From: a virus
Lineage: Duplodnaviria > Caudoviricetes
Reading direction: 5' to 3' (one strand)
Length of the DNA stretch: 64,000 nucleotides
IMG/VR virus record: IMGVR_UViG_3300042291_001013
Within the stretch, counting starts at the first letter, position 1. Each line of letters starts with the position of its first letter. The notes under the pieces are model-generated. The model saw only the letters and a list, made by a program, of their open reading frames with translations. It did not search any database and was not told where the DNA came from. Made by a program: the position numbers and the translations under genes. Below are positions 1 through 25,628 of this stretch, piece by piece.

Positions 1-1167
1 TTGTGCCAGTCGATCTTTAAATGTGTCCAGAGCTTCGGGTGACGCAAACTGTGTGCGACCCTTGGCGTCTTTGATTAGACTGTTGCCCTTACGTGCAATT
101 AAATCAAAGAACATGTTCTTGGGCACTGTGACGCCTTGCTTGACTGTGTTGCCTGCTTGACGATGCAACTCAACCTTTTTGACTTCGCGGCTCTTGCTAC
201 CGGAACTGAAGTTGATTATAAAGTTAGGCGGATGCGAGCCTGTGGCCACATCGCCCATTTTGGTATAAGCATAGAATTTAACGTCAGGATTGGCCTTGGC
301 CACATCATATGCTAGGTCAAGGTATTCTTTACTAAAGAAGTCTCCTGCATCGTGCCAGCGCACCACAAGCTGAATACCAGCTTTATCTGTTTTGTTTTTG
401 AGTGCTGTGATTTCTTTGTTTACAGCGGCCATGTAGCCTTCAGGCTCATTTACCAGGAAGTTCAAGGCCTGTGCCGCGCTCATGCTAGACGCCGGGAACA
501 TTACATAACCGCCTTTACGTGCATAGCAGAACAACTGACATTCGCCTGCGCCCGGGCAGGTCTTTATTTCCACAAAGTCACCCGACTCTTCATCTACTAC
601 AATACCACTCAGTGCAGGCAGTGTTAGATCATAAATGATTTCACCTTCGGTCTTGCTCTTTTCCATTTTGGCATTGGTGCCTAGAATAGCTCGAGGACGT
701 GTGGTGATTTGCTTGGCTAGATCATCTAGATCCCACTCAGTGCCGCCATCGTCCTTGGTAATGGCTTTAATGTTTGAGCCGTGTATAATGGGTGCAAACT
801 TGTCACGCTTGGTCTTGGTGCCTGTTTTGATACGGTCAGCATAGCCTTGCAATTCATCTCGACTCAGTGTTTGTTGTGGTGCATTGAGCTTGATAGCTTC
901 CGCCACACCTTGCTCGTTTTTAACTACAAAACTTGTGTGCTGAAGACCAGTAAGGGGGTCCGTGTATGTGCGCTTGAACACCTTACCGCCATGCTCACGT
1001 GCATGAGCAAATGCTTCAGACTTGCTGTCAAACCTGTTTGAGGGAGGCTTAATCATGGGAGACGCTTGTTCATCTACTCCGCTTTGATCTACTGTGACAA
1101 CAGTAACAGGGAATCCTCCCAGGGTGCGCGGAGCTTCAGCTTGCTCCACAATGGTTTGTAACTTCAT
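1..1167 (-). CDS. Modular protein with C-terminal GP88-like (radical-SAM-like) domain; truncated by the window edge and missing from the ORF track
   Basis: Manual translation from ATG 1167: MKLQTIVEQAE...EQGVAEAIKL...TCPGAGECQLFCYARKG...VVRWHDAGDFFSKEY...FYAYTK. The reading frame stays open to base 1, and its ATG overlaps the upstream TGA (ATGA). Confidence 0.8.
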   Translation of the reverse strand, partial: MKLQTIVEQAEAPRTLGGFPVTVVTVDQSGVDEQASPMIKPPSNRFDSKSEAFAHAREHGGKVFKRTYTDPLTGLQHTSFVVKNEQGVAEAIKLNAPQQTLSRDELQGYADRIKTGTKTKRDKFAPIIHGSNIKAITKDDGGTEWDLDDLAKQITTRPRAILGTNAKMEKSKTEGEIIYDLTLPALSGIVVDEESGDFVEIKTCPGAGECQLFCYARKGGYVMFPASSMSAAQALNFLVNEPEGYMAAVNKEITALKNKTDKAGIQLVVRWHDAGDFFSKEYLDLAYDVAKANPDVKFYAYTKMGDVATGSHPPNFIINFSSGSKSREVKKVELHRQAGNTVKQGVTVPKNMFFDLIARKGNSLIKDAKGRTQFASPEALDTFKDRLAQ

Positions 1168-3815
1168 TTTGCTTCTCCAAATATAGGCCCACGCACAAAT
1201 TGGCCCAGTTGATTTAATATACCATTACGCAGGTTTTCAATCATTTCATCTGTGATATCTCTACGGCGTGTTTGCGCAATAAAGATATGCATTTCAATGG
1301 CGTCATCGCCTTCTTTTTCCAGTATAGCATGGCAACGATGACGTCCGTCATGTCCTTTTACTCGGGCTTCTAGACTAAAGTCACCCTGCTCCCAGGATTC
1401 GGGTACAGACACATTCAAAAATGGTGCGCCAATGCCGCGCTCATTGAGTTCGCCTTTGCAAAACGCAATTGCCTTGCGCTCTTCAGGATCATGTGGGTCC
1501 ATGGGCAGGGCCAGCTTTAGAAACATCGACGGGCGCATTTGTACCTGTAGGCCAAAGTAATCAACGTCAGCATTGTAGGGCACAGCACCCACACCTGAAG
1601 AGTTGTTGATACGTACTTCGTCTAGGCTTTCATTTTTTCTTTTGGCTCGGGCACGACCTGATTTCATGTTGGCCAACCAGTGTGCCAGTTGTCCTTTGCG
1701 CCCGCCTGATTTGGCAGTTTTGCGTAAGCTACTTACACTTGCTTTGGTATTGATACCGTGTCGCTTGGCATCGCCCTTGTCTTGTGGATTACGCCCGTCG
1801 GCAAAGTTTTCTGATACACCTTGCTTGTCAGCCCAGAGCAAGCGTCCTTCTTCTTGCGCTATACGATGTATGTTGGTTCCCAATTTGGTGGGCTGTATGT
1901 CATAGTTGTCGAACTGTGCTGAAAGTTTTTGAAGTATTCTTACAGCACCAAGATATTGATCGCCCACAAGATCATCAGGCACAACTACCAGGATATCAGT
2001 GTCGCTGTTTCTACGATGTTTTCCTGTAGCGCGACTACCATGGAACCATATTTCTTGTGCCACAGGCATGACTTTTTGTATGGCATCAACCACTTCTGGC
2101 CGTACAGAACCTGGTCGAGCTTCGTCTACGTTGTATGTGGGATCAGTCTTTTGACGCGGCATGTCTGGGGGCTGATTGGGATCAACAGGGTCAATGTCTG
2201 TTGTAGTAAGCCCAGTGCGTTTCAGCGCCTGTATGTACTGATGTTCAAGATCTTCGTCACCAAAGCTCAGTATGGCGCTGGGAGGTCCGGCACCAAAGTC
2301 ATGCTTGCCTAGGCCTTTCATGTTGGAAATATGTTGTCCCAGCTTGTACCAGTCGTAGACATCGCTTACATCTACCTTGACAGTGCCTGCAGGCATAGTG
2401 GGCGGAGTTTCTGGGCCCAAGGGTGCATTTAAATCCCTATTGTTGTTGGGACCTTTACTGGGCTGGGGCAAGCGGTATTCTACCATGTCAACTCGGCCGT
2501 CAGCACGTAGCATTTGTGGGCGACCTTGTGCATCAGTTTTTAGACTCATGCGGTTGGCATTTAATCCTGTGGCGCCGGGACGTACATCCTGTGTTAGAGC
2601 CATTTCAAATCTGGGATCATTCTTTTCGGCTTCAGTGGGAATATAACCTGAGCTTTCAAACATAGCAGGGTTGCGATCAGCCCAGTCACGCATGATCACA
2701 CCGGCCACAGCATGTGCTTGGTTTTCCCAGTCACTGCCGGTGTCGCCTGCTTCGTCAGGCAACTCACTATCTTGATTTTGTCTACAATGTGCCAGCTCGT
2801 GTGCAGTGGTGCGCAAGATATCCATGACATGGCGGTTAACCAGGCTCACTTCTAGTGTGTGCGTTTCAGGCGTGTAGCGTCCAAAGCTGTGGCTTTGGGA
2901 ACTCCACTCAGGGTCAGTGTGCAGTTCAATCTGTGGTATTTGTGTTATGCCCAAGCGATCTGCCGCATAGTCAATAAAGTCACGCACCACAGCTTCAGTG
3001 TCCCGGGGCTCGTCTTCTAGGAACATCTTGGTTGAAGGATCCACACCGTCTGGACTTTCTGACATGAAGCCGTAGATTACCGGCGCCATTGGGGTGTTCT
3101 TTTCTGCTAGGCTAAGTTCCTTGGCATGTGCGGCATTGCGAGCGTCAATTAACTGTTTGATAGCACCATGTGCTCGCAACATCTTGAACACCAAGTTGTC
3201 GCAGCCAAATTCGCCCTGCTGTTCCAGGCCAGTTTGGCGCATGGTTTTGATTTTTTGTTGTAGACTACGCATACGATCACTATCGTCACTGGCCACAGCA
3301 GATTCTATACGTGCTTTTAGATCTTGATACTTGGCTTGTACACAGCTATCGTCAATGGTGACTTGTCTGCGTCGAGGAACCTGTATCCAGGCATTGCGCA
3401 ACAAACTGTAAATGCCTTGACTGTGATGTTCTTGATCAGAAGGCTGTGCATACAGTTCTACATCAGCGCCGCCAATGCGTATGTTGTGTTGTTCGTTGTA
3501 CTGATATTTTTTAGCATTAAACAGCTCACGATACACTTCGTCATGAACAACATTGGGTATTTCCACCACAATGTGCAGATCAATGTCAGATCCGTCAGTG
3601 TAGTTGTAGGCCGCGTTAGATCCGCTTACCGTGATGTCTTTGACATCAAGATCGGGTACGCCCAAGAATTCTTGAAAGTCTCGGGCCACCTGTAACAGGC
3701 GTTCTTTTACCTGGGGATGCAGATGTTCTGCACTGTCCCATAACCGAGGGTTGAGTCGGTCATGGAATTTTACAGCATCTGCCAGGTTGAATGATTCCAG
3801 TTCAAATATGTTCAT
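1164..3815 (-). CDS. Polyvalent modular protein: pol-beta-type nucleotidyltransferase, HExxH zincin, second minimal nucleotidyltransferase, ParB-like C-terminus
   Basis: Motifs VSGSNAAYNYTDGSDIDLH, AHELAHCRQ, WFHGSRATGKHRRNSDTDILVV and GHDGRHR; TAAATA box 8 nt upstream of ATG. Confidence 0.75.
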   Translation of the reverse strand: MNIFELESFNLADAVKFHDRLNPRLWDSAEHLHPQVKERLLQVARDFQEFLGVPDLDVKDITVSGSNAAYNYTDGSDIDLHIVVEIPNVVHDEVYRELFNAKKYQYNEQHNIRIGGADVELYAQPSDQEHHSQGIYSLLRNAWIQVPRRRQVTIDDSCVQAKYQDLKARIESAVASDDSDRMRSLQQKIKTMRQTGLEQQGEFGCDNLVFKMLRAHGAIKQLIDARNAAHAKELSLAEKNTPMAPVIYGFMSESPDGVDPSTKMFLEDEPRDTEAVVRDFIDYAADRLGITQIPQIELHTDPEWSSQSHSFGRYTPETHTLEVSLVNRHVMDILRTTAHELAHCRQNQDSELPDEAGDTGSDWENQAHAVAGVIMRDWADRNPAMFESSGYIPTEAEKNDPRFEMALTQDVRPGATGLNANRMSLKTDAQGRPQMLRADGRVDMVEYRLPQPSKGPNNNRDLNAPLGPETPPTMPAGTVKVDVSDVYDWYKLGQHISNMKGLGKHDFGAGPPSAILSFGDEDLEHQYIQALKRTGLTTTDIDPVDPNQPPDMPRQKTDPTYNVDEARPGSVRPEVVDAIQKVMPVAQEIWFHGSRATGKHRRNSDTDILVVVPDDLVGDQYLGAVRILQKLSAQFDNYDIQPTKLGTNIHRIAQEEGRLLWADKQGVSENFADGRNPQDKGDAKRHGINTKASVSSLRKTAKSGGRKGQLAHWLANMKSGRARAKRKNESLDEVRINNSSGVGAVPYNADVDYFGLQVQMRPSMFLKLALPMDPHDPEERKAIAFCKGELNERGIGAPFLNVSVPESWEQGDFSLEARVKGHDGRHRCHAILEKEGDDAIEMHIFIAQTRRRDITDEMIENLRNGILNQLGQFVRGPIFGEAK

Positions 3816-3836
3816 TGAACTGTTATTTACCGCAGT

Positions 3837-4808
3837 TTAGGGTGTAGTGGGTTCTGAACTATTGGTGGCCACAATTTCAGCCACGGGTTCAGCTTCCAGC
3901 ACATGTGTAGGTACTTCGTGTCCACCCTGTGGATTCATTGTGATAGTACCGTCAGCATGTGGTGTAACAGCGGCTCGTGCAGTAGAAGGCGCAGGTACTT
4001 GTACCACGTCTGTGCTGATCACCGGGCTGGTCATGGCATTGAGGTCAATCTTGAGTTTTTCCTGTGCGGCCCAGTCAAACACATAAGTGCCCACGTGACG
4101 TAGTAACACACGCTTGTCAACCCAGACCTGCCCACCAAGATCACGCCAGTTTTCACAGAATGTCCAGTCTTCACTGTAGTAGCGGCCTTCGCGTACTGCT
4201 GTGTCAAAGTAGGTTTTCATGTAAGGGTCCAACTCAGGTGGCAAGCCAATGTCGTTTTTAAACGGCTTGGTGGCAGGGTGTGCATTGAGCTTTTCAAACA
4301 CATCACGCTTGATCAACAAAAAGCCTGTGCCGGTCTTGGTAACTTCAATGTGATTTTCTTCCGGAGCAGGTTCAGGAGTTCCAGGAATACCATTAACACA
4401 CCATTTGATAGGCATGCTCTTCATGGGGTACAATCCGCCAATAATGTCTTTTTGTGCATCCAACATCACCAACAGGTGCCAGGGTTCCCAGCCAATGTCA
4501 GCGTCAACAAACATCAAGTGTGTGGACTCTTTGGTGTGCAAGAACTTGGCTGTGAGCGTGTTTCTAGCACGGCTAATCAAGCTCTCGTTGGTCATGGTTT
4601 CCACGGTCCAGTCAAGGTTCAATTGACGTGCCATGTTGGCCCATTTGATATAGCTCATGAAGGTTTGTTCAGTAAGCTGACCACCATAACATGGCATACA
4701 GATATGCACTCGGGTGGTACGCAAATAGTCCAAGTTTACTTGAATGTTTTGCTGTTGTGTAGCAGTGGGGTCACTGGGTGGTGTAATAGTAGGTTGGGCG
4801 TCAGCCAT
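3837..4808 (-). CDS. GT-A fold glycosyltransferase
   Basis: CMPCYGG, SLISRARN, FVDADIGW (DxD) and YSEDWTFC motifs. Start placed at MADAQP behind a GGAG RBS. Confidence 0.8.
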   Translation of the reverse strand: MADAQPTITPPSDPTATQQQNIQVNLDYLRTTRVHICMPCYGGQLTEQTFMSYIKWANMARQLNLDWTVETMTNESLISRARNTLTAKFLHTKESTHLMFVDADIGWEPWHLLVMLDAQKDIIGGLYPMKSMPIKWCVNGIPGTPEPAPEENHIEVTKTGTGFLLIKRDVFEKLNAHPATKPFKNDIGLPPELDPYMKTYFDTAVREGRYYSEDWTFCENWRDLGGQVWVDKRVLLRHVGTYVFDWAAQEKLKIDLNAMTSPVISTDVVQVPAPSTARAAVTPHADGTITMNPQGGHEVPTHVLEAEPVAEIVATNSSEPTTP

Positions 4809-4859
4809 GTTATCTCCGTTAAAAGTGTGCAGATATTTAATGCAGTACACCCGGTACTA

Positions 4860-5516
4860 TTAAATTCTGTACCATGTAGTATACACTATTTCACGGGCAC
4901 GTTGCAACCTAGCGTTGTCATTTGTAGTTTCTTGATCTGTGGCCAACTCACGCACAGCACGTTGATAAATGTCAAGATCACCCGATTCGGGTTCAAACAC
5001 ACAACTGCGACGATACTGGTCAAATGCTTGTTCGGCCCCAGCATTAAACAAAAGATTCAAAGTGGTCAGTTCTTTCAAACGTGAAAGAAATTGCTCGGGC
5101 TCTTGCCAAATATCACACCATTCTAGATTGAATTGTACGCCTCGACGAATCCAACCTGCATACTGTGCGGCAATTTGGTAACGAACCCCCTGGTCTTCAG
5201 AACGACCTGTTTTCTTTTGTAGATTCAAAAAGAAGTTGAACCAGGCACGATCTGATCCCAGAACAATTTCACAATCGTGCCAGGTAATGCTGTGTTCGCG
5301 ACGTTGAAAATAATTTTGATATTTTATTTCTGAATTTGAATTAACAATTGATTCTATTACTGGAAAATCAAAATTGTCAACATCCCCGCTAATGGATTGA
5401 TTATGTAGCGAGCACCAGGTCAAATAATTCAACCAAGCGCCACCACTGCCCATGGGATACCATAATTTAGGCAATTGCTGTAACTGTGTCCAGGAACCGT
5501 TGACGATCAAGGTCAT
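4860..5516 (-). CDS. Hypothetical protein, possibly divergent sulfotransferase/P-loop-like fold
   Basis: N-terminal YPMGSGGAWLNYL loop resembles that of 28511..29212; the fold call is inference. Confidence 0.4.
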   Translation of the reverse strand: MTLIVNGSWTQLQQLPKLWYPMGSGGAWLNYLTWCSLHNQSISGDVDNFDFPVIESIVNSNSEIKYQNYFQRREHSITWHDCEIVLGSDRAWFNFFLNLQKKTGRSEDQGVRYQIAAQYAGWIRRGVQFNLEWCDIWQEPEQFLSRLKELTTLNLLFNAGAEQAFDQYRRSCVFEPESGDLDIYQRAVRELATDQETTNDNARLQRAREIVYTTWYRI

Positions 5517-6242
5517 TTAAACCCCGCCACGTTCTTCTAGGTAGTCCTGTACAGGCTGATTTTCTCGGGCCTGATAACTGGCTTTCATTCCACCCACTGA
5601 CATCTGTCCCAGTGTTTCGTTTGTGAATGAAGCGGCCCAGCCTTGGTTTTCCGCCACAGTACCAATGGCAGTGTCCAGCATTTTTACAATGTTTGCGGCC
5701 AAGGCCGGATTTGACTGCGTGGCAGGATACAAACTCATGACCAAGGCAGTTTTGCGCTTTTCATTAAGCTGTGGCCATGCATTACGAATTTCTGTGGCTG
5801 ACGTCATGCCTGGACCAAACTCCACTGTGGGCAAGTAGGCCATGTAAGCATGCTGACCAAATGGCGCAATGTTTGTTTCACCTGCCAAGGGCTGTAGGTA
5901 TGCTGGGCTACCATCTTTTTTGATGCCACCGGGTTGTGGAGGTTTGTTGGCGTCTTTTTCTGAACGCACAAATATCAATCGATCTTTTTCAGGATCAAAT
6001 TGACTGGTAATTTCTTCAGCTCTAAATGGTGATTTGACCTGCACAAAATGTCCGGGCTCGACACCAGCTAATTTTGCCAGCTTTTCTTTTACAGCAAAGG
6101 GAAATGGTCTACTGGAGGTATCGTTTGTTGCGGCCACAAACACCTTGGCGCCGGGAAATGCTTTACGGGCAGAATTATACAGTGCAAGATGTCCTGCGTG
6201 AAACGGGTGAAATCCCCCGGGCATGATAACAATGGTACTCAT
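5517..6242 (-). CDS. HxGH nucleotidyltransferase (cytidylyltransferase/NadD/CoaD superfamily)
   Basis: PGGFHPFHAGH and MTSATEIR motifs; TAAATA box 6 nt upstream. Confidence 0.85.
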   Translation of the reverse strand: MSTIVIMPGGFHPFHAGHLALYNSARKAFPGAKVFVAATNDTSSRPFPFAVKEKLAKLAGVEPGHFVQVKSPFRAEEITSQFDPEKDRLIFVRSEKDANKPPQPGGIKKDGSPAYLQPLAGETNIAPFGQHAYMAYLPTVEFGPGMTSATEIRNAWPQLNEKRKTALVMSLYPATQSNPALAANIVKMLDTAIGTVAENQGWAASFTNETLGQMSVGGMKASYQARENQPVQDYLEERGGV

Positions 6243-6257
6243 AATGAGTATTTAGCG

Positions 6258-6701
6258 TTACATGTGCTCCAAGAGCCAGAGATAGATAGGGGTAGAAAAT
6301 GTCAGTATAACTGTGCCGTTACAGCCCATGGTTCCGTAACAGCGTTCAGTAACTGAGTCACCGGTACCGTTGAAATTGTGCTGATACTGTGCTAGAGTTT
6401 GAAATACCTGCGTTACGTCAATGTCGTCAAATTCCACAGCGTCTATTCGTAAACAACTGTCGTATTCAAATCGGCCGTCTGCGTCAAGATGCGCATGGCT
6501 GTCATTTTTGCCATACAGTTCAATTTCCAGCCGGTGTTCGCCGTCTTGATCCGGCATAAACTGATGCAACACTGTTCTTGCTGTGACTGCATCAGTTCTG
6601 TAGAGTTCGTTGCCGTTCAAGCGAATGCACACGCCCAAGGGGCGATCAGGATCTGTGGGCTCAATGGCCAGGGCCAGAGCAATGGTATTTGCGTCAGTCA
6701 T
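6258..6701 (-). CDS. Hypothetical protein
   Basis: Clean ORF translationally coupled to its neighbours. Confidence 0.6.
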   Translation of the reverse strand: MTDANTIALALAIEPTDPDRPLGVCIRLNGNELYRTDAVTARTVLHQFMPDQDGEHRLEIELYGKNDSHAHLDADGRFEYDSCLRIDAVEFDDIDVTQVFQTLAQYQHNFNGTGDSVTERCYGTMGCNGTVILTFSTPIYLWLLEHM

Positions 6702-7063
6702 TAGTAAGTAATAGTAACAGTGTTAATAGTGCCGCCACTAAAGCCTTCAACTCGCACACGCATCCATGTGAAGTTGCCCAGCACAGTTTCGGGATGATAG
6801 TCTGTGAGTGGTATGGTACTGCCATCGCCATACACAAAAGTGGGGAACCAAGTGGCTTGGCCAGGATCTTGATCCAGAGTTGCTTCTAGAGTCATGTCAC
6901 CTTCAAATCCTGTCACAGTAAACAGCACAGTTTGTGTGCTGCCTTGCCCACGATAGTAGGCAGCAGCCTTGACCGCATCACTGATCCAGTCTTGACTGCT
7001 TCCGTCATAGTTGCCGGAAGGCGTACCATAAACAGTGGTATCAAGAATGGTTTGAGTGGTCAT
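6701..7063 (-). CDS. Hypothetical beta-rich, probably virion structural protein
   Basis: Thr/Gly/Asp-rich ORF in a late operon. Confidence 0.55.
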   Translation of the reverse strand: MTTQTILDTTVYGTPSGNYDGSSQDWISDAVKAAAYYRGQGSTQTVLFTVTGFEGDMTLEATLDQDPGQATWFPTFVYGDGSTIPLTDYHPETVLGNFTWMRVRVEGFSGGTINTVTITY

Positions 7064-7227
7064 TATGCTCGTTCTGCTTCTACAACAACACCGGCACCGG
7101 CCAGTTCTTCAGCCACTGATTGCAGAGCCGCAACAATGTCATCGGTAGCAACTGCTTTGACAGCGTCGTTATCTTTGATCAATTTTGAGAGTTTGATCAC
7201 AACTACTTCTTCGTGTATTTTTGCCAT
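7063..7227 (-). CDS. Small hypothetical protein (54 aa), not in ORF track
   Basis: MAKIHEEVVVIKLSKLIKDNDAVKAVATDDIVAALQSVAEELAGAGVVVEAERA; TAAATA box 7 nt upstream; its TAA overlaps the next ATG. Confidence 0.7.
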   Translation of the reverse strand: MAKIHEEVVVIKLSKLIKDNDAVKAVATDDIVAALQSVAEELAGAGVVVEAERA

Positions 7228-7237
7228 AGTGTATTAT

Positions 7238-10133: not shown

Positions 10134-10181
10134 ACGCTATTATACTACTTACACCAAAAAACCACAACCATTACGGATAGG

Positions 10182-10979: not shown

Positions 10980-10980
10980 G

Positions 10981-11013
10981 AAAAAGGCCCTGTATGTTTA
11001 ATTATACAGGGCC
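10981..11013 (-). terminator. Rho-independent terminator overlapping the dnaJ promoter
   Basis: 10-bp stem GGCCCTGTAT/ATACAGGGCC with 8-nt loop, followed by TTTTT on the minus strand. Confidence 0.8.
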
Positions 11014-11245: not shown

Positions 11246-11249
11246 GATT

Positions 11250-13364: not shown

Positions 13365-14246
13365 TTAGCAGTTCCACTTTCTTAGTGCTAGAGCTTTGCG
13401 TGTGGGCTTACCATTGGGCTTTTTCATTGGGCCTTTAACTCCGCCCATTCTTGCACAGAAACTCTTGCGGCGCTTGGCTGCTTTTGATCCTGGCTTGAGC
13501 TTGCTGGGCTTTGTGGTCACTGCCATTTGCAATTTACTACCAGGATTCTCTCTGCGATAGCTGGCAACACCTTTGGCGTTGAGTCCGCCTTTTTTGCTCT
13601 TGCCTGCACTGCGTCTCCAGGCGGCTGTTTCGTATAACACGTTGTCTGGCATGGCTTCAAACTGTTCCCACACTAGGTCTTTACTCACGCGATTTTTAAT
13701 AGACATTTCTTCAGCCAACTCGTCCATGGCTTCAAACATGGCGTCTATCTCGGGATCCACTTCGTCTGAGGCTTCTTCTGAATACATGTAATCCCATACC
13801 GCAACCAACATTGATTTGGCCACAGCAATTTTTTCTTGGCACCATTCAGGCAAGTTGTCACCTGATTGAATCAAGTCATCAATGCCTTCAACAGCACGTT
13901 GCAATGTTTCCAAGTTGTTGTCAGCCATGCCTGCTTCGTCATCGTATTCAGGGTTGTAGTTTTCGTCCACGCCTGCTTCTTTCTTTTTAGCAATAGCAAT
14001 TGCGGCTTGCTGTGCAGGATTGGCAGCTTCTTCAACACCTTCTGATTTGTTGCCATAACTGCCAGCGCCTTTTTTGCGACACTGAACCAAGCGTCCAGAT
14101 GCATACGCACTTGGCCATACCTTGGCACTTGCTTTGACCTTGTAGTAACAAGCGTCTTTCTTTTCTGTCATCATCATTTCACTAAACATGGGCCCGCCGC
14201 AATGCGGACATTTGTGTGATGACTCTGTTATGTCTTTGAATTTCAT
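13365..14246 (-). CDS. Modular basic/acidic protein of the type seen in T4-like cyanophages; putative internal head protein
   Basis: MKFKDITE leader; modules KKDACYYKVKASAKVWPSAYASG and AWRRSAGKSKKGGLNAKG...RRKSFCARM separated by x-x-E junctions. Confidence 0.65.
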   Translation of the reverse strand: MKFKDITESSHKCPHCGGPMFSEMMMTEKKDACYYKVKASAKVWPSAYASGRLVQCRKKGAGSYGNKSEGVEEAANPAQQAAIAIAKKKEAGVDENYNPEYDDEAGMADNNLETLQRAVEGIDDLIQSGDNLPEWCQEKIAVAKSMLVAVWDYMYSEEASDEVDPEIDAMFEAMDELAEEMSIKNRVSKDLVWEQFEAMPDNVLYETAAWRRSAGKSKKGGLNAKGVASYRRENPGSKLQMAVTTKPSKLKPGSKAAKRRKSFCARMGGVKGPMKKPNGKPTRKALALRKWNC

Positions 14247-14818
14247 TTGCGTTTTCCTTTGGTACTTACATTTATGGCGGCACCCGAACGGTTGGGATTG
14301 GGATCTTCTCGGCGTTTGCGGGCTGCCGCACTGGCACGACCTTTTTTGCCCAGGGCATGTGCTTTGGCTTGAGGCAAACACTTGGGCTTGCCTTCTTTAC
14401 TACTGCCTCTGGCACAGTCCCCACGTATCTTGCCGTCGGGTCCAAATCGAACCCACTTTTGTTTAAACCAGTCTCGAAGATTTTCTTCAAGCTCTTGAGT
14501 TGACATTTTCTTTTCATACCCTTGCACAGCAGTGTTTCTAGCAGGGTTGGGTGCATCTTTAAATTTGGATGCTGGCAAAAACTTGTCAATACTTTTCAAT
14601 GTTAGTGGACCCATTATGCCATCTATGTCCAAGTTGGCATTGTGTTCTTGATTTAGCATTTGCTGTATTCTGCGTACCGAGTCAGAATCTTTATTTTCTT
14701 CTTCAAGTTCTGTTTCACTCACAGGCACACAATTGGGAACCATTCTAGAGCCTTTTTTCTTCATGCCAGCTTGACGGTATCCGTCCCAGCAGGCTTCTAG
14801 TATTTCTCTGTATCTCAT
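14243..14818 (-). CDS. Modular protein; putative internal head protein with a peptidoglycan-binding-like segment
   Basis: MRYREILE leader; ACWDGY...VPNCVP module; VRRIQQMLN...LDIDGIMGPLT (PG-binding-like); LRDWFKQKWV...PKCLP module. Confidence 0.6.
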   Translation of the reverse strand: MRYREILEACWDGYRQAGMKKKGSRMVPNCVPVSETELEEENKDSDSVRRIQQMLNQEHNANLDIDGIMGPLTLKSIDKFLPASKFKDAPNPARNTAVQGYEKKMSTQELEENLRDWFKQKWVRFGPDGKIRGDCARGSSKEGKPKCLPQAKAHALGKKGRASAAARKRREDPNPNRSGAAINVSTKGKRK

Positions 14819-15306: not shown

Positions 15307-15494
15307 CGAATGTTATTCCAAACACGTTCGTGTGCAAAATACAACAAGGTGTTTACTACCAGCTGAATTACCGCAATTGTGCCAGAAATTGCAAAATCTC
15401 CCAGTATTATGTAACTGATTGCAAAAGTAGCAGTTGACCCTGTAATGCGCCAACTCACCGTCTTTACTAGACTACGAGAAGTGCTGTCACTCAA
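15291..15494 (-). CDS. Small membrane protein (DUF2061-like)
   Basis: RSLVKTVSWR...YFAHERVW pattern. Confidence 0.75.
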   Translation of the reverse strand: MSDSTSRSLVKTVSWRITGSTATFAISYIILGDFAISGTIAVIQLVVNTLLYFAHERVWNNIRWGRN

Positions 15495-17878: not shown

Positions 17879-18400
17879 TCCTTTTTAAATGAATATTTTA
17901 GTCAGTACTGGAAGCCCACTACTGATGCGTTTACTTATAGTGCTTATGGTGCTGTGGCCGCAAAAATACAGCCGCACGAAGAGGTTTTGGATGTGGGCTG
18001 TGGGTCTAACCCATTCAAAGCATTGTTGCCGCGTGTGACCGGAATTGATCCTGCGTTTGATCAAGCCGACATCAAATGCACAATTGAAAGCTTTCGACCA
18101 ATAAAACTGTATGACGTTGCGTTGTGCCTGGGATCAATTAACTTTGGTGACCACACTGTGATCAACAGACAAATTGCCAAAGTGATTGATTGCCTTAAAC
18201 CTCAGGCCAGAGTCTACTGGCGACTAAATCCTGGACGAACTGATCATGCCAACAGTGAATGCCAGGCTGTGCCGTTTTATCCTTGGACACATAGCAAACT
18301 GCGTAAGCTAGCACTATATCATGGATTTGAACAGCGCAATGAACAAACAGAAGGCAATGACCGTGTGCAACGATTATACGCTGAATGGCATCGCGGGTAA
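17867..18400 (+). CDS. Class I SAM-dependent methyltransferase
   Basis: VLDVGCGSN, GIDP and YDVALCLGSINF motifs; lies on the opposite strand to its neighbours. Confidence 0.85.
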   Translation: MHDQSFLNEYFSQYWKPTTDAFTYSAYGAVAAKIQPHEEVLDVGCGSNPFKALLPRVTGIDPAFDQADIKCTIESFRPIKLYDVALCLGSINFGDHTVINRQIAKVIDCLKPQARVYWRLNPGRTDHANSECQAVPFYPWTHSKLRKLALYHGFEQRNEQTEGNDRVQRLYAEWHRG

Positions 18401-19039
18401 TTGGTCAGAGATATAACGATAGCAGGCCTGGTGTGCATCTGTCAAGGGATGGCACAGGTCACTGATAGCATGCCCTTGCTTGCGACTCCAGTTCACAAAG
18501 TTGTCCCCGTCAAATGTGGTCATGTGCGGCCGTATTGAGTTTTGCATTGCAGTTAACGCTGGAGTGGTGTGAAACTCTGTTTCAAACATCAGATCGTCCA
18601 TGTAAGTCATGATAAATGGCACAGAACGTTTTTGTAGCTGATCCACGCACAGTTGTACCATGCTCAAGGTGCTGAACTTGTCCCTAAACTGTGAATGAAA
18701 ATTGCGATAGTAATAGTTGCCGTGGTTGTCGTTTTCGCTGGGGCGCAGAGTTAGCCATTTGTCTGTGCGAAAATCCACGTAGTCAAAACGATCAATCCAG
18801 GTCCAGTTCACAACATAAAAGTCTGGCTCTGAAGTTGCGGCCAGCGCAGTTAACAAGCGTTCAGCAATGTGCATATTGCCTGCGCCCGGACGTGCATAGC
18901 ATTGATACCCCCAGCCTTGACTCTGCGCCAGCAATGCTGGCCATGTCATTTGTGAAGGAGTGGCATAGGCTGTGCCGTAGCCGTCATCGGGTAGCTCGCA
19001 GCCAAACATAAAGCTACAGCCAAAACTCTTGAGATTCAA
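18374..19039 (-). CDS. SGNH-hydrolase-like protein
   Basis: FGCSFMFG block I, NWTWIDR, C-terminal HPLTDAH. Confidence 0.65.
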   Translation of the reverse strand: MNLKSFGCSFMFGCELPDDGYGTAYATPSQMTWPALLAQSQGWGYQCYARPGAGNMHIAERLLTALAATSEPDFYVVNWTWIDRFDYVDFRTDKWLTLRPSENDNHGNYYYRNFHSQFRDKFSTLSMVQLCVDQLQKRSVPFIMTYMDDLMFETEFHTTPALTAMQNSIRPHMTTFDGDNFVNWSRKQGHAISDLCHPLTDAHQACYRYISDQLPAMPFSV

Positions 19040-19810
19040 TTAATATCCTGCTTTTGCTATTTCAGCACCGCGGTTAAAACTGTCACTCCATGATGCTGTG
19101 CTGACACCGCCGCGAGCCTTTGACCATTGGTAACCGGCTCTGTGTCCTGAACAGTCTTTTGTACAAGGACTCATGCCCATGAACGTTAATTCTCGCAACT
19201 GTTCTTGCCCTTTGATGCCAATTACCATGCTTCGTATATAGTCAGTCTCGGGGTCTTCAAGTTTGATTTTGTCTTTGAAAAGAACCTTTTCCAGGGGAAA
19301 TAGTTCCAGCAATTGATCAGGCGAACCAAAATTGTGTTCACTGCTGGCCTGTACATTGTCTCGGCCCTGCAGGACCACAAGAGTTCCTGAAGGTATGTTA
19401 TCAAACCAGCCATGGTCAGGAATGTCTGTGGTGCTGGTGTTTATTACCAGGCCAGGATCTTGTAACTGACGATAGTCAATTTGATTGGCATCAGCTCGCA
19501 TGTGGTCTACACCATCAATGTTCATGCTCTGTTGCATTTGTTTTCCCTGACGCAACCATTTGGCGTTCTTTTCCACGTCAATGATGCGTTCAATAGGAGT
19601 GTTGGCTTTGCGCAAGATAGTACTCAAGTTACTGTACCATGAGCCCAGTACATAAGCAACTGGCACAGAGTCAATACCCTGTTTGCGCATGACTTGTTGT
19701 AGTTCACGAGCCAACCATATCTTGCTCAAGATCAAGTCTGTGGTATAACTGCCGGCCAAGCTGTAGCCAGAACTTTCTTCAAGTGGTGCATACAGCTCGT
19801 TTAGAATCAT
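19040..19810 (-). CDS. Rossmann/methyltransferase-like protein with Glu leader and short Cys-containing C-terminal module
   Basis: MILNELYAPLEE leader, VLGSWY, IIDVE, VINTS, LVVLQG; C-terminal LRE-LTFMGMSPCTKDCSGHRAGY module. Confidence 0.5.
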   Translation of the reverse strand: MILNELYAPLEESSGYSLAGSYTTDLILSKIWLARELQQVMRKQGIDSVPVAYVLGSWYSNLSTILRKANTPIERIIDVEKNAKWLRQGKQMQQSMNIDGVDHMRADANQIDYRQLQDPGLVINTSTTDIPDHGWFDNIPSGTLVVLQGRDNVQASSEHNFGSPDQLLELFPLEKVLFKDKIKLEDPETDYIRSMVIGIKGQEQLRELTFMGMSPCTKDCSGHRAGYQWSKARGGVSTASWSDSFNRGAEIAKAGY

Positions 19811-19971
19811 GGATTTAGTTTGAAACCTGTGCTTTGCATCACGGGAAAGTTTGATGGCGGTTTCTTTTGCTTGGGACCAAGTTGTGAGGTGCGTGGGTCA
19901 ACCACAGCATTGGGAACTCCTGATGCCACAGGAATAACTCTGTGTGTGCGATTCATTGCGGATTTTCTCAT
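19807..19971 (-). CDS. Small hypothetical protein (54 aa)
   Basis: Fills the gap between the protease and the next gene; its TGA overlaps the next ATG. Confidence 0.5.
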   Translation of the reverse strand: MRKSAMNRTHRVIPVASGVPNAVVDPRTSQLGPKQKKPPSNFPVMQSTGFKLNP

Positions 19972-19972
19972 G

Positions 19973-21520
19973 TTAAGTTCCTAGTCTTGTGTTACTTACC
20001 GACACTGCACCACTCACATTGCTGCCACTGGCAGTGTTAAACGGTAGATACGCAAATCTATTGGGACCACCATGCAAAATTTCTTCATTGCTGTAGTCAG
20101 TTTGCGATCCTGTGTCGTAGAGCATGTTGGCTGTGCTGGTGTCGATTACTTTTTGTCTTATCTGTGCTGGTGTGGCAGTGGGATATACCTGTAGCAATTG
20201 TGCGGCAAGGCCGGCCACCTGTGGTGAAGCCATGGACGTTCCTGAAATACTCATTATTTTATAACTGCCGTTTAGTGGATAAGCTGTGGTTGCGCCAAAT
20301 GTATTGGTAGTACTAGTGGTGCTTACAATGTTGGTACCTGGTGCGTAAACATCAACCCTGGGCCCAGATTCACTATCGCCAAGTTTGTGTTCAGGAGTGT
20401 CATATCCAGTGCTGACGTTGCCCACACAGATTACTCCTGTGGCACTGGCTGGTGAGCCACCACGCATGTAGTATCTAGGAGTGCTTGTTTGGTTAAAATA
20501 GTTGTCGTAATCTGGGCCGCCCAGCACATCTAAAGTTTGATAATAGTTTCCGGCTGCACCAACTAAGACCACACCTGCTGCCAGCAACTCAGCCACATCC
20601 ACATCCACACTGTCTACCCTTACGCCAAAGCGATTGGATGCACTGCCAATCATGCCATAACTGGGTTGTTTGCTACTGCCGGACCAGACTGTTCCACGAT
20701 ATACCCCGCCATTGATACTGGTAAAAGTAGTGATGTAACTCCAGCTCATATTCACAACTGTGGGACGTTTGTAGCCCAAGGCAGGGTCAACTGTTTTGTT
20801 GTTGTGCCAACCCTTGATGCAGTCAAACACATCAGTTGTTGATATCCCATTGGTAGGCGCCACATTGAGGCCGTCCACAGTCATAACATATATTCTGGCA
20901 TTTTTAGCACGACCGTATGTTTTGCCTGCGGCAATGCCACAACAGTGTGTGCCATGTCCGTCGTAGTCGGTATAAAAATTAGCAGGCATGGTGCCCGCAA
21001 TCCCTGACGCTGTGTACCAGTCTATTTGCTGTACTCTAGTCACACCGGCTGCATCTTGAAAATCAGGATGATCAACCTGACAGCCCGAGTCTTGTACCAC
21101 AAAATCTACTCCAGTACCGTCCAAGGGATAGTTGTAGGTTAATGTGCCTGATGCACCTGGGGTATTCATTGTGGTTGAATTGCATCTAAACAGCCCCCAG
21201 TTAATACCAAGATTGTTGGCAGGATTGGTTCCCGGACTTTTATAATACAAGCCAGTTTGGCTGGCGTTGTTGTGAATTTGAATATCTGAGCGATGTTCAG
21301 GAGGGAGTTCTACACAAAAAACTCTAGAGTCGTTGCGCAGGTTATCTGCTTCCTCATCAGTCAAGTCATACCAGCACTGGCGTAGACTAGTAGGTCGCTC
21401 GTTTACAATGTCTATACCGCGTTGGGGCACGTATGTACTGCCCGAGCCGTCTGTTTCTATTTCAGTCCAGAAGGCGTCATAGTCAACGCCTTCTTTGAGA
21501 GCTACGTTGTATGTGGTCAT
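19973..21520 (-). CDS. Subtilisin-like S8 serine protease with N-terminal prodomain
   Basis: Catalytic triad motifs VVQDSG, HGTHCCG and SGTSMASP; oxyanion AAGN. Confidence 0.93.
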   Translation of the reverse strand: MTTYNVALKEGVDYDAFWTEIETDGSGSTYVPQRGIDIVNERPTSLRQCWYDLTDEEADNLRNDSRVFCVELPPEHRSDIQIHNNASQTGLYYKSPGTNPANNLGINWGLFRCNSTTMNTPGASGTLTYNYPLDGTGVDFVVQDSGCQVDHPDFQDAAGVTRVQQIDWYTASGIAGTMPANFYTDYDGHGTHCCGIAAGKTYGRAKNARIYVMTVDGLNVAPTNGISTTDVFDCIKGWHNNKTVDPALGYKRPTVVNMSWSYITTFTSINGGVYRGTVWSGSSKQPSYGMIGSASNRFGVRVDSVDVDVAELLAAGVVLVGAAGNYYQTLDVLGGPDYDNYFNQTSTPRYYMRGGSPASATGVICVGNVSTGYDTPEHKLGDSESGPRVDVYAPGTNIVSTTSTTNTFGATTAYPLNGSYKIMSISGTSMASPQVAGLAAQLLQVYPTATPAQIRQKVIDTSTANMLYDTGSQTDYSNEEILHGGPNRFAYLPFNTASGSNVSGAVSVSNTRLGT

Positions 21521-21522
21521 TG

Positions 21523-24500
21523 TTAGATAATATTGGCCCAGGCACCATTCTCGTAACCCTGGAACTTGTTGACAGATGAATTGTAAATCATGTCACCATT
21601 TGCCGCAATAGTGTTGGCAATTTGTGCTGTGGTTAAACTAGGCAATCGGAATGTGCCGCCACCAATCACACGCACCGCAGACACCGCTGATAAGTCCAAG
21701 TTTGTGGTACTGCTTATTGTGGGAGTACCTGCGCCGCCACCAACAACATTACCAATAAAGTTACCAGCAGTAACGTTGCCAGTAGTTGATATAGGGTTAG
21801 AACCAAATGCAGCCAGATTTGCCGCTACATTGGCGTTGCCATAAGAACTAACACCGTTGGCAATACCAGTCAATAAACTGCCATTACCAATAAAATAGTT
21901 GCTAGAGATATTGCCTGTGGTACTGATTGTGTTACTGCCATACCCAGCTAGCAAGGTAACCACGTTTGAGTTACCATAACCACTTGCGGCAATACCAGTC
22001 AACAGCGATCCATTACCAATAAAGAAATTGCCAGCAATGTTGCCTGTAGCACTAACAATACCGCCAGTGCTGACGTTGGCCGCAACCATGTTGCCTGTGG
22101 CTGATATCACGCCAGGGCTAGTTATGTTGCCACCACTCACGTTACCTGTAGCTGACACCAGGCCTGACACATACGCACCAGTGTTGGCCACTACCATGAC
22201 GTTTGATGTACCGCCAATGGTTACAGTAGCGTTGCCGTTTATCAGTGGCATTGAAATAACACTGGTTCCGTTAATTACACCAGGGTGATTGTGACTTTGT
22301 TCAGCACCAACAGCGTTGGCCACGTTGCCCAGGAAGTAAGCACCTGTGACATTGCCAGTACTACTGATCACACCACCTGTGATAATGTTGCCGCCTGTGA
22401 CGTTGCCGGCAAATGTTGGTGCAGTTTCAATCCCAACTGTGGCAGTTTTACTAGTGGCATTGCCCACAATTGTGACATTGGTACCTGGAGTCAGTGTAAC
22501 TGTGTCATTGGGGCTGGAAGCCACCAAACTGGTACCGTTGGCACTGACTGTGTTGAAAATGTTTGCGGCTGCCGCAGTAATGCCTGTCAGCTGTGAGCCA
22601 TTGCCCACAAAGAACCCAGCTGCCTCAACGTTGCCCACAGCACTGATTGTGCCCAGAGATTCAATATTGTTTTCAACATTCAAGCCATCAACCACTGTGA
22701 CAAATGCACTGTTGTCAGATGTAATGGTGTTGGTAACCAGTATTGGTGTTTCAACACCGCCCTCGGCCCTGATCCCATCTTCTATAGTGACAAAACTGCT
22801 GTCGCCTGATGTGATGCGGCTGGCTGTAATAACACCTGAAACTGTCAAATTGCTCAGTGCGCCCACACTAGTAAGACTACTGTTTACAACATTGGAAGCC
22901 AGTGTATTGCCCACCAAGAGCTGTGCATTGGCATTGGTGGCCACAATGCCAGTCAGCTGTGATCCATTGCCAACGTAGTAACTTGCAAATATATTGCCTG
23001 TGGCACTAATGTTGCTAGCGGCACTCATGCCAGCAGTGGCTTTGACAAATACGCCCTGAATGTTGGCAGTTGTTGTAACGTTGCCAGCCAAAAGTGATAA
23101 GTTACCGGTGTATGTGGGCAAATACGTTGCAACGTTGGCATTGCCATACGATGCCGCAATGCCTGTGAGCAAGGCTCCGTTGCCTAGTACATAGCCGCCT
23201 GTGGAGATATTACCAGTGGCAGTGACAGCACCAGTTATGGTTGTATTGCCACCTGATACAGCGCCCGAGACCGCCAGCGAAGTCAGTGTGCCCACTGACG
23301 TAATTGCTGACTGTGCAGGATTGGTCACTGTGTTGGCAGTTGCGGCGCTGGTGGCAAAACTAGAATTCTGTGCAGTCAGCGCATTGCCAGAGTTGGCCGC
23401 ATAGCCTGCATTGGCCACTGTGCCCGAAACATTGGCACCAGTTATTGAGCTCAGTGCCGAACCATTGCCGCTGATGTTACCACTACTAATGTTACCAGTA
23501 ACTGCCAGCGTTGACAGCGTGCCTACTGAAGTGATATTGGGCTGTGCGGCTGTGGTCACTGTGCCTGCTGTGATGGCCACTGTGGCCAAGGTGGCTGAAT
23601 TTGCAGAGCCAGCAGTGTTGGCAAAATATGCATTGTTTACAATGCCCAACACGTTGGCGCCAGTGATATTGCTGAGTTGTGCGGCGCCACCAATGAAGTT
23701 GGCCCCAGTCACATTGCCAGCTGTACCTAAATTGCCTACGTTAGCATTACCAGTTAATGATATGGCCTCGCCAGTGATATTGCCAGTGTATGTGGGTAAG
23801 AACATGGCTACGTTTGAGTTGCCGTATCCAGACTGAACTCCAGTTAAGAAAGCACCATTGCCAACAAAGTACCCAGTGGTGGTTCTGATATTTCCCACAG
23901 CAAGTACACCATTTAGGGCATTTAAGTTATTGCCAGCCAGGATGTTTCCAACGGTGCTGATAAATCCGCCAACGTTGGCATTGCCTGTAGTGGAAATATT
24001 GTTGGGAGTCAAGTTGCCGGTGTATGTGGGCAAGTACGCCTGCACATTGGCATTGCTGTAAGTGGCTGGCAATCCAGTCAGCTGTGATCCGTTACCAAAC
24101 AGATACCCAGTTGTGGTGATATTGCCAGTTGACACCAAGGATGTTAGAGTGCCCACACTAGTGATATTGGGCTGTGCGGCAGTGGTCACTGTTTGAGCTC
24201 GCACTGCTGTTGTGGCTGTGGCTGCCAGGGTTGCCACAGCAGCCTGCTCAGCATTGGTTGCGTAACTGGCATTGGCCACTGCACCTGACACATTGGCGCC
24301 AGCCACACTGTAGGCCACGTAGGCTATGTTAGCAATTGCGGCTTGATTTACTATACCTGACACATTGGCGCCGGCCACAGCACCTGCTGAGTTGGCATAG
24401 TTTGCTATGCTGGCTGCTCCTGCTGATGTGGCATATGTGGCGTTGGCCACGGTGCCCGAAACGTTGGCACCAGTCACGCTGTAGGCCACGTTGGCTGTGG

Positions 24501-25086
24501 TAGCTGAAGTTGCTGTGCCTGAAAGATTTGAATACTGTGCGTTGGCCACAAGACCAACCACATTACTACCTGTGATACCGGAAAGTCTTGAGCCTGATCC
24601 AACAAAATAAGCCGCATCCACATTGCCTGTGGTGGCCAAGATATTGGTATTGGCATTGTAAGTTAGATTACCACTAGCACCAAATGTGCCATTTTGATTG
24701 AACTGGATCTGGGTGTTTCCACCTGCGGCAATACCAGCACCGTTGCCACCGGCAACTTGAATTAGAATATTGCCATTGCCCAGATTGTTTAAGTAAACAC
24801 CCGGGCCGGTAAAGTTCAGTGTGTTGGCTGATGTTGTAAGAGTATTGCTGTCATACTGTATGGTCACTGTGCGTGGCAGCGCGGCTACCACTACGTTTTG
24901 TGTAGGCAAAGGAGCAAACAAGTTGCCCAGGCCAGTACTTTGAGCTGGTGGACGTGAAAGTCCAGTTTGTGCAGGAACCGGAATTGGCACACCTGAACCA
25001 GGACCTGGCGGTACTGGATCGGGCGCTGTATCAAGCGGTCCAATTACGCCGTCTGCTATGGTAGGGGTGATATTCGCGGTTGGCAT
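21523..25086 (-). CDS. Long Gly/Asn/Ala/Thr-rich repetitive tail-fibre or virion protein
   Basis: Repeats AAQPNITSVGTL, FVGNGSQLTGI and YGNANVA; C-terminal NGDMIYNSSVNKFQGYENGAW. Confidence 0.75.
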   Translation of the reverse strand: MPTANITPTIADGVIGPLDTAPDPVPPGPGSGVPIPVPAQTGLSRPPAQSTGLGNLFAPLPTQNVVVAALPRTVTIQYDSNTLTTSANTLNFTGPGVYLNNLGNGNILIQVAGGNGAGIAAGGNTQIQFNQNGTFGASGNLTYNANTNILATTGNVDAAYFVGSGSRLSGITGSNVVGLVANAQYSNLSGTATSATTANVAYSVTGANVSGTVANATYATSAGAASIANYANSAGAVAGANVSGIVNQAAIANIAYVAYSVAGANVSGAVANASYATNAEQAAVATLAATATTAVRAQTVTTAAQPNITSVGTLTSLVSTGNITTTGYLFGNGSQLTGLPATYSNANVQAYLPTYTGNLTPNNISTTGNANVGGFISTVGNILAGNNLNALNGVLAVGNIRTTTGYFVGNGAFLTGVQSGYGNSNVAMFLPTYTGNITGEAISLTGNANVGNLGTAGNVTGANFIGGAAQLSNITGANVLGIVNNAYFANTAGSANSATLATVAITAGTVTTAAQPNITSVGTLSTLAVTGNISSGNISGNGSALSSITGANVSGTVANAGYAANSGNALTAQNSSFATSAATANTVTNPAQSAITSVGTLTSLAVSGAVSGGNTTITGAVTATGNISTGGYVLGNGALLTGIAASYGNANVATYLPTYTGNLSLLAGNVTTTANIQGVFVKATAGMSAASNISATGNIFASYYVGNGSQLTGIVATNANAQLLVGNTLASNVVNSSLTSVGALSNLTVSGVITASRITSGDSSFVTIEDGIRAEGGVETPILVTNTITSDNSAFVTVVDGLNVENNIESLGTISAVGNVEAAGFFVGNGSQLTGITAAAANIFNTVSANGTSLVASSPNDTVTLTPGTNVTIVGNATSKTATVGIETAPTFAGNVTGGNIITGGVISSTGNVTGAYFLGNVANAVGAEQSHNHPGVINGTSVISMPLINGNATVTIGGTSNVMVVANTGAYVSGLVSATGNVSGGNITSPGVISATGNMVAANVSTGGIVSATGNIAGNFFIGNGSLLTGIAASGYGNSNVVTLLAGYGSNTISTTGNISSNYFIGNGSLLTGIANGVSSYGNANVAANLAAFGSNPISTTGNVTAGNFIGNVVGGGAGTPTISSTTNLDLSAVSAVRVIGGGTFRLPSLTTAQIANTIAANGDMIYNSSVNKFQGYENGAWANII

Positions 25087-25088
25087 TG

Positions 25089-25628
25089 TTATCGTTCTTT
25101 CTTAGGCTGCTGTGCAGGTTGTACCGCTGTGGGTACGTTTTTATAAACACGTTTTTCAGGATCGTAAACTGTTTTTAGTGGGCCCATGCCTGCTAGCTGT
25201 TTAACTCGGGCAACCATGGCTTGATAGTCATCGCCATAGTCTGCTTCTTTTTCTTTGTTTTCTGCTACACCTTGCTTTTTAGCTTGTTGAATCTTTGCTT
25301 GTATTAATTTTAACTGTTTGCTCAATGGGTCGTCTAGACCAACACGACCGCCGTCTTTTACAATAGCATCGATCTTGTCGCTGATTTCGCTTGCTTTAGC
25401 TTTTAATGATGTTAAATCATCAGCGCCTTCCGCCACACCTTGCTTTCTATTATCCAATTTGGTAAACGCTTTAACAAAATTAGGACCACTTTTCATGCTT
25501 TTTGAGTCACTGCGTTTTGTAGGATCCATTTTGTGTTTAAGGTTATCTTTATCTAATTTTGTTAGATAACTGGTTAGCGTAGCATCACTAACCTCCGCCA
25601 CACCTTGAGTAAATTCATTCAGTCTCAT
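25089..25628 (-). CDS. Modular protein with three QGVAE junctions; putative internal head protein
   Basis: MRLNEFTQGVAE...KQGVAEG...KQGVAEN. Start placed at MRLNE. Confidence 0.65.
   Translation of the reverse strand: MRLNEFTQGVAEVSDATLTSYLTKLDKDNLKHKMDPTKRSDSKSMKSGPNFVKAFTKLDNRKQGVAEGADDLTSLKAKASEISDKIDAIVKDGGRVGLDDPLSKQLKLIQAKIQQAKKQGVAENKEKEADYGDDYQAMVARVKQLAGMGPLKTVYDPEKRVYKNVPTAVQPAQQPKKER

Follow-up and report, generated by a model that had tools for sequence, protein, structure and literature searches.

A DNA word of about 20 bp (consensus AG-CAAGGTGTGGCGGAA-GGC), encoding the peptide QGVAE, is kept constant at the DNA level in an uncultured T4-like jumbo phage from a lake and in hundreds of its relatives, and cassettes are gained, lost, and swapped in frame at this word. 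It very probably acts as a DNA-level exchange junction, and it likely encodes a head-protease site as well. The reading that we prefer, with a probability of roughly 0.6, is a self-reinforcing short-homology junction that would at the same time encode the head-protease site, the shuffled cassettes being released as separate proteins carried in the virion.

The window, that is, the whole analyzed stretch of 64,000 nucleotides, contains five copies of the word, all on the minus strand and all in frame. The exact 15-mer was found at 898–912, preceding a GP88-like core, and at 25428–25442 (copy 2), where GGC follows. The 14-nucleotide match at 25594–25607 is part of copy 1 (25593–25607; 14 of 15 positions exact), which encodes QGVAE with GAG as the Glu codon and lies directly behind the seven-residue leader MRLNEFT. 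Copy 3 (25260–25274) has decayed, with changes at two silent positions (GTA GCA), and retains QGVAE; the copy at 1809–1823, which separates a nucleotidyltransferase cassette from the NFADG module, is decayed too, with three mismatches, and encodes QGVSE. All five positions had been reported in the first-pass annotation and were borne out, with the qualification that only three genes are concerned, since three of the five copies sit in one gene (25089–25628). A QGVTE at 37513–37527 was excluded from the set as likely chance. With up to two mismatches allowed, four matches were found versus 0.42 expected, and none of 100 shuffles reached four; the whole 128-kb record contains no exact 14-mer besides these three. 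The probability that at least three of four QGVAE peptides would use these four codons is 1.7e-6 at the codon usage of this genome, where GCG accounts for 9% of Ala codons. The Val codon by itself is no evidence, because GTG is already the commonest Val codon here (40%).

The 179-aa gene (25089–25628, minus strand) is a short allele of a variable-length slot located behind two genes for virion structural proteins, and comprises the leader, cassettes A and B, and a terminal module. Both cassettes recur in other phages with about 82%–96% DNA identity, next to different neighbors, and end at the word. The basic 50-aa cassette A (VSDATL...LDNRK; 25443–25592, minus strand) is 96% identical at the DNA level in three relatives (L018, L091, and L204) from nucleotide 22 to nucleotides 200–204 of the gene, and the 51-aa cassette B (GADDLTSL...QQAKK; 25275–25427, minus strand) is 82%–93% identical in four others (L119, L303, L179, and L064), with its limits at words. 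The terminal module (KEADYGDDY...GPLKTVYDP...TAVQP; 25089–25259, minus strand) closes polyproteins of 370–1,055 aa in the equivalent slot of relatives. An Atlas search with the 179-aa protein gave only weak matches to hypothetical viral clusters, and the gene region had no INPHARED match. The GP88-like gene (1–1167, minus strand; Pfam GP88, E = 9e-33) extends past the window edge, encodes 441 aa in the genome, and has 521 relatives. Between its leader and the word lies an optional 52-aa module (QASPMIKPP...VVKNE; 913–1068, minus strand), present in L309 and missing or replaced in other orthologues; additional modules in orthologues are inserted exactly ahead of the core, at the Glu/Ala joint. 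The protein encoded by the third gene (1164–3815, minus strand) has 883 aa and several modules and is similar to a polyvalent protein; it includes a 99-aa Pol-beta nucleotidyltransferase cassette (1824–2120, minus strand; Pfam NTP_transf_2, E = 4e-12) that in L147 is flanked by QGVAE on both sides. No module is common to any two of the three genes.

Sharp breaks of homology among relatives fell on the word in 446 of 737 cases versus 36.8 expected (12-fold enrichment), as the first-pass annotation had anticipated for breakpoints of module gain or loss. The remaining approximately 40% were off the word, and about half of them (140 of 291 versus 42 expected, 3.3-fold) lay at other hydrophobic-x-Glu sites; therefore, modules can fuse without the word. 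Flank types seen at least two times had more than one partner in 114 of 126 cases upstream and 109 of 116 downstream, and three clean in-frame gain or loss events were identified. The cassettes have a median length of 80 aa and fall into 178 families among 245. The spacing of the words was a multiple of three in 276 of 289 cases, and 274 of 289 internal cassettes were open in frame. The allele at position 1 of the word tracked the upstream module (19/29 versus 8/79) and that at position 15 the downstream module (12/25 versus 2/38), while core variants tracked neither, which points to a crossover inside the word. Core variants were almost never carried to new junctions. The earlier suggestion of recombinational shuffling is thus well supported as regards the junction, whereas the exchange occurs mainly across the phage population, not among the three genes in the window. 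Modules are also joined at other hydrophobic-x-Glu sites that lack the word.

T4 gp21 cleaves after L/I-X-E and strips a 10-residue targeting sequence, and homologous proteases use S/A-X-E (PMC9026906). In the word, the P1 Glu showed 9 non-synonymous versus 55 synonymous changes, and P3 was kept aliphatic, with mostly Val to Met changes; it is Val or Met here, not the Leu or Ile of T4. The leader pattern M-x-h-x-[EDQNH]-h, which was derived from these same leaders, occurred in 106 of 197 word-bearing proteins (54%) versus 10 of 129 other ORFs (8%; p = 4e-19). The gp21 protease gene (Peptidase_S77; PHROG 207) was present in 16 of 20 relatives carrying the word and absent from the 128-kb record, itself 34% complete. 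In one relative, an L-A-E site lies close to the N-terminus of the major capsid protein. The protease site proposed in the first pass therefore gains indirect support from the P1 Glu, the aliphatic P3, the common leaders, and gp21, and loses from the Val at P3.

A search for recombinant junctions in reads had also been proposed in the first pass. In four of four lake runs, Logan unitigs start or stop at 25578–25607, and the lake assemblies branch at 25607, the first base of the word, where the loose end runs in frame into another module; among the joints listed, which come from assembled lake contigs only, none skips cassette A or B. Cassettes that are 96% identical in co-occurring phages do make graph branches, but it is scarcely credible that the shuffling is an artefact of chimeric metagenome assembly: assembly k-mers exceed the word in length, unitig X1 (24249–25607) runs through copies 2 and 3 with no difference, a separate IMG/VR contig (L296) is identical across the whole 179-aa gene, and cassettes merely 50%–70% identical are shuffled too. 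That codon bias or recent descent from a single linker accounts for the word, which would then do nothing at the DNA level today, was refuted and is very improbable, although CAA, GAA, and, in this genome, GTG are preferred codons. Identity at synonymous positions held up on a larger scale, since junctions picked by peptide alone had identical codons in 181 of 249 cases versus 1.3 expected. Bias as its source was rejected, as GCG makes up 86% of the Ala codons within the word versus the 9% background and the excess persisted in loci retrieved via motif-free core proteins (42 of 66 exact). Young common descent was rejected because the cassettes between word copies are synonymously saturated while the word is still conserved (silent-site identity of 0.79–0.92 versus 0.40–0.44 in cassettes). 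Middle copies were exact more often than end copies (59% versus 40%), and first and last copies were equally decayed.

It is unlikely that the word is kept as another DNA or RNA signal (protein binding, a translational pause, a Chi-like site, or a G-quadruplex), with breakpoints accumulating there via selection for the protease site. The 3.3-fold enrichment at word-less hydrophobic-x-Glu sites would fit this, as would a G-rich word found always on the coding strand, but the enrichment is 12-fold on the word itself, the word is confined to one reading frame of leader-bearing genes, and the 8-mer TGTGGCGG occurs only four times in the record, three of them inside the word. A G-quadruplex was rejected since exactness does not depend on the fourth GG tract (81% versus 77%, p = 0.35), and a hairpin since folding energy at junctions equals that of flank-swapped controls. 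No listed Chi motif matched (PMC8022716), and a Chi site of the listed kinds was rejected on this basis; the host may have a specific Chi of its own. CRISPR-like polarity or copying from a neighboring repeat was not seen among the copies and was also rejected. A host-genome origin was discarded: the 19-mer had 19 GTDB matches in 596 Gb versus about 4 expected by base composition, three of them clustered in one contig, and the word is therefore not a bacterial repeat family. Somewhat less unlikely, but still doubtful, is that a dedicated, unrecognized site-specific recombinase or nuclease of phage or host moves the cassettes in the manner of an intragenic integron; combined with release by the head protease, this would make an integron-like in-frame diversifier of protein cargo, outside known recombinase families. 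It would account for the predominance of one word over hundreds of contigs without a rival word, for the failure of core variants to reach new junctions, and for the stronger fixation of Gln CAA than of Glu GAA (9 versus 55 silent changes). The nearest cultured phages also lack the word: no exact copy was found in the best capsid matches (Phosso, 2.275.O, PA5oct, BF, and XbC2; 65%–70%), nor was any cultured phage carrying it. Against such an enzyme, the Tyr, Ser, IS110, Cas1, RT, Rad52, RecT, and ERF families had no match in near-complete relatives; a tyrosine recombinase was found in 0/20 relatives, including 0/9 near-complete ones, with the control detected in 14/14, and Cas1 was found in 0/5 genomes. 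Moreover, the word contains no inverted repeat and no extra hairpin potential, its conservation tapers gradually over about 20 bp, and fusions occur at other Glu linkers too. RecA/UvsX was encoded by 10 of 10 relatives, and a general rather than a dedicated recombinase probably acts at the word.

In the preferred reading of a self-reinforcing junction, the word would be the standard in-frame joint of genes for head-packaged proteins in an uncultured, aquatic clade of T4-like jumbo phages. General, replication-coupled recombination of the UvsX/RecA type would cross over within the short identity of the word, probably often with longer homology in an adjacent module common to both partners as an anchor. 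New junctions would arise mostly between matching copies, which would make the commonest word self-reinforcing, and copies at stable junctions would decay. A gp21-type prohead protease would cut V-A-E after Glu, so that a cassette added at the word could be released in the head as its own small protein and may be injected; since every joint would have a cut site, fusions at the word would be tolerated and kept. Several observations speak against this reading. An identity of 15–20 bp is little for homologous recombination to work efficiently, tandem duplications of cassettes, which unequal crossing-over should produce, were nearly absent (one case), and a single dominant word would also be explained by a sequence-specific protein. 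In addition, Val at P3 is outside the T4 L/I-X-E consensus, and about 40% of the sharp breakpoints are off the word.

If true, the old "linker" model of how phages evolve in modules would gain a concrete mechanism at the sub-gene scale: one 20-bp word would set the frame, direct exchange to safe points, and provide the processing site. Aquatic jumbo phages of this widespread clade could then draw on a common library of small injected proteins. As a search handle, the word also allows the polyproteins to be divided into candidates for anti-defence or host takeover, and it turns the choice between minimal homology and a dedicated recombinase into a directly testable question.

No description of the word was found in the literature. 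Integrons and shufflons likewise change the order of cassettes at a repeated site, in shufflons also in frame, and both systems require a tyrosine recombinase. The phage word differs in having no attC-like hairpin, in its copies being direct repeats rather than inversion sites, and in the absence of this recombinase from 20 of 20 relatives. It differs from CRISPR arrays in the lack of Cas1 (0/5) and of leader-end polarity of repeat decay, and from Chi in matching none of the listed motifs and being bound to a frame rather than spread genome-wide. The PeSL elements of the T4-type phages RB49 and phi1 are similar: there, too, crossover at a repeated short element shuffles modules, and no dedicated recombinase was identified (Arbiol et al. 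2010, PMC2839356). However, PeSLs are intergenic promoter and terminator stem-loop elements moving whole ORFs (PMC2839356), whereas the word, of about 20 bp, lies in frame inside genes, is free of a hairpin, and encodes a peptide site. Polyvalent proteins resemble the polyproteins described here as predicted-packaged multi-domain proteins with Pol-beta nucleotidyltransferase, GNAT, zincin, and other domains; they are released via embedded peptidases, the text of that study does not use the term "linker", and no conserved DNA joint was found in the passages considered (Iyer et al. 2017, PMC5512222). Disparate conflict domains occur in our set as well (the nucleotidyltransferase in 1164–3815; GNAT, ParB, and NT5C in relatives), and most cassettes match no family. 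The VENN motif of CdiA and PxxxxDPxGL of Rhs are likewise conserved peptide-coding DNA where identity abruptly ends, and in-frame module recombination was proposed for them (Poole et al. 2011, PMC3150448). Those bacterial systems exchange one terminal toxin domain with its immunity gene from silent orphan modules, while the phage word bounds many internal cassettes on both sides in one reading frame; no immunity genes or orphan modules were seen beside the phage cassettes, and no Pfam toxin family was found among 64 polyproteins. T4 IPI–III and Alt share with the phage proteins a short N-terminal leader, cleavage after Glu (predicted here), variable cargo, and a protease of the gp21 family, encoded here in the clade (PMC9026906). 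Each T4 internal protein is small, stands alone, and is cut once, after L/I-X-E (PMC9026906), whereas the phage proteins are strings of cassettes with V-A-E linkers fixed as DNA.

The DNA word encoding QGVAE at protein-module joints is a real feature, occurring above chance. All five sites claimed by the first-pass annotation were found; each is an in-frame, minus-strand site coding for Q-G-V-A/S-E, and together they fall in three genes: a GP88-like gene (1–1167), an 883-aa gene (1164–3815), and a 179-aa gene (25089–25628, three copies). Four matches with at most two mismatches were observed where 0.42 would be expected, and every shuffle gave fewer than four. The 128-kb record, a longer stretch of this genome, contained three exact 14-mers and no others. 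Given the codon usage of this genome, the probability that three of four QGVAE sites carry these codons was 1.7e-6. A QGVTE at 37513–37527 (minus strand), with three mismatches to the 14-mer and located within a 1275-aa gene missing the leader (a short shared N-terminal stretch), is probably a chance match.

The source record, a viral contig of 34% completeness, encodes a T4-like polymerase and clamp loader, and the virus occurs in lake metagenomes. Relatives found via the GP88-like gene included near-complete genomes of 340–400 kb, one of which has a major capsid protein with 65–70% identity to those of Phosso, 2.275.O, PA5oct, BF, and CBB. Exact copies were absent from the five cultured phages scanned among those with the best capsid matches, and 20 uncultured relatives contained 1–9 copies per genome, mostly on one strand only (reversed control, 0–1).

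Conservation as DNA was assessed in 249 distinct junctions selected by peptide alone ([EK]QGVAEG, codons unconstrained). CAA GGT GTG GCG was used in 181 of them, against 1.3 expected; use of GCG was 86% in the word versus 9% in the background, and that of GTG 84% versus 19%. Since the skew extended to flanking codons (AAG/GAG ahead, GGC behind), the word is about 20 bp long with soft edges. Exact matches made up 21/39 and 21/27 of the sites in loci retrieved via core proteins. For homologous cassettes (modules between word copies) below 70% protein identity, silent-site identity was 0.40–0.44 inside versus 0.79–0.92 in the flanking words. The silent-site difference, the codon counts, and the core-protein loci rule out recent descent and codon bias, the latter being the explanation that the first-pass annotation had set against its own proposal.

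In three other loci (L018, L091, and L204), a 96% match to cassette A (25443–25592) began at base 1 of word copy 1 and stopped where copy 2 ends, with different neighbors in each; cassette B was likewise word-bounded with other neighbors in L119, L303, L179, and L064. Relatives' proteins in the slot of the 179-aa gene comprised 370–1055 aa and ended with the same terminal module. GP88-like orthologs consist of a leader (~24–45 aa) and a core; inserts, which can reach hundreds of residues, sit precisely at the E|A boundary ahead of the core. In locus L147, QGVAE lies on both sides of the nucleotidyltransferase cassette found in the 883-aa gene. Sharp homology breaks, which are not fully independent events, numbered 737 in the full set of loci. 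The word accounted for 446 of them, versus 36.8 predicted from the fraction of these genes that it occupies, a positive outcome of the breakpoint check proposed in the first-pass annotation; of the remaining 291, 140 were located at hydrophobic-x-Glu sites other than the word, versus 42 expected. Flank types seen twice mostly had several partners (maximum 11), three clean in-frame gain/loss events were identified, and the distance between adjacent copies was a multiple of three in 276/289 cases. In contigs, not reads, unitigs from four lake sequencing runs end or begin at 25578–25607, and in one run (X5) depth summed over cassettes was about 3x that of the flanks; a loose end at 25607 in this run, translated from a two-contig consensus, is an open frame into QGVAE. 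At locus L232, the junction shows partial tandem duplication, the 42 nt ahead of two successive words being identical.

The position-1 allele of the word tracked the upstream module (19/29 vs 8/79), and that at position 15 the downstream one (12/25 vs 2/38). Position 12 leaned weakly downstream (7/37 vs 0/46), and variants at positions 2–11 showed sharing above chance with neither module. Judged from sequence comparison, the exchange therefore lies within the word, and mutated copies are rarely reused. In arrays, middle copies were exact in 59% of cases versus 40% for first or last copies, and neighboring copies had no variants in common. Such a pattern is compatible with short-homology recombination as well as with a sequence-specific protein. 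A dedicated, as yet undescribed recombinase could produce such alleles and leave mutated copies unused, but we consider it unlikely: tyrosine, serine, IS110, Cas1, reverse transcriptase, Rad52, RecT, and ERF families were not found in the relatives (controls were positive). RecA/UvsX was present in 10/10 relatives, and neither a hairpin nor a Chi match nor dependence on a G-quadruplex emerged as a basis of the word. For these reasons, we prefer general recombination, which would act at the word, with one word standardized by frequency dependence. Of the proposed recombinational shuffling through the motif, module change at the word and crossover inside it stood, while its attribution to short homology is a preference.

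Among 699 near-copies of the word, the Glu codon had 9 non-synonymous versus 55 silent changes, Val changed mostly to Met, and Gln varied freely, which points to selection on a hydrophobic-x-Glu peptide in addition to the DNA word. The common leader was found in 54% of word-bearing proteins versus 8% of other ORFs. The prohead protease gp21 was encoded in 16/20 relatives. Its gene belongs to a head gene cluster of T4-like type, and the capsid protein encoded there carries L-A-E close to the N-terminus. T4 gp21 cleaves after L/I-X-E, removing a 10-residue targeting sequence, and its phiKZ homolog recognizes S/A-X-E (PMC9026906). Val at P3 (Glu being P1) is off the T4 consensus but plausible for gp21-type cleavage. 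The word, earlier suggested to be a protease site, probably also serves as a maturation cut site, at which the head protease would cleave putatively packaged proteins. The 245 cassettes fall into 178 families, mostly cargo without assigned function; the few matches include GNAT, ParB, NT5C, DnaJ, and DUF6321. Inserted modules of two GP88 orthologs (L369 and L376) begin with DRRGFL.GLGAAA and may be membrane-targeted cassettes. Pfam TAT_signal matched 3/64 polyproteins.

Motifs read directly from the sequence of the 883-aa product included an N-terminal NTase-like region besides the Pfam nucleotidyltransferase cassette, a zincin-like HELAH at about aa 338, and a ParB-like DGRHR close to the C-terminus, so that it looks like a polyvalent protein; DSG, HGTH, and GTSMASP were read in the same way in a subtilase-like protein (19973–21520, minus strand), with a long fiber-like gene upstream. 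Two leader-bearing genes at 13365–14818 (minus strand), both lacking word copies, contain PHROG 727/3477/38880 modules and DUF6321 common to relatives' QGVAE polyproteins. The leader-bearing gene at 19040–19810 (minus strand) ends with an ELTF..CTKDCSGH.AGY module, which is inserted in GP88 orthologs L370/L371 and terminal in L472/L497. The 19-mer occurs three times, in a cluster, on an 8.9-kb contig (L419) binned into a Bacteroidetes (bacterial) MAG; the contig is probably phage DNA that was mis-binned.

No published description of the word was found within our incomplete coverage of the literature. The word system failed the tests defining PeSLs, integrons, CRISPR arrays, and CDI/Rhs systems. 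It resembles CdiA VENN and Rhs motifs in that identity stops at a peptide-coding repeat (PMC3150448), and the PeSLs of T4-type phages in repeat-guided shuffling without a known recombinase (PMC2839356). Word-bearing proteins are similar to polyvalent proteins (PMC5512222), and the word would feed something similar to the T4 internal-protein pathway. It represents linker-guided module exchange, new in being intragenic, in frame, and bounded on both sides.
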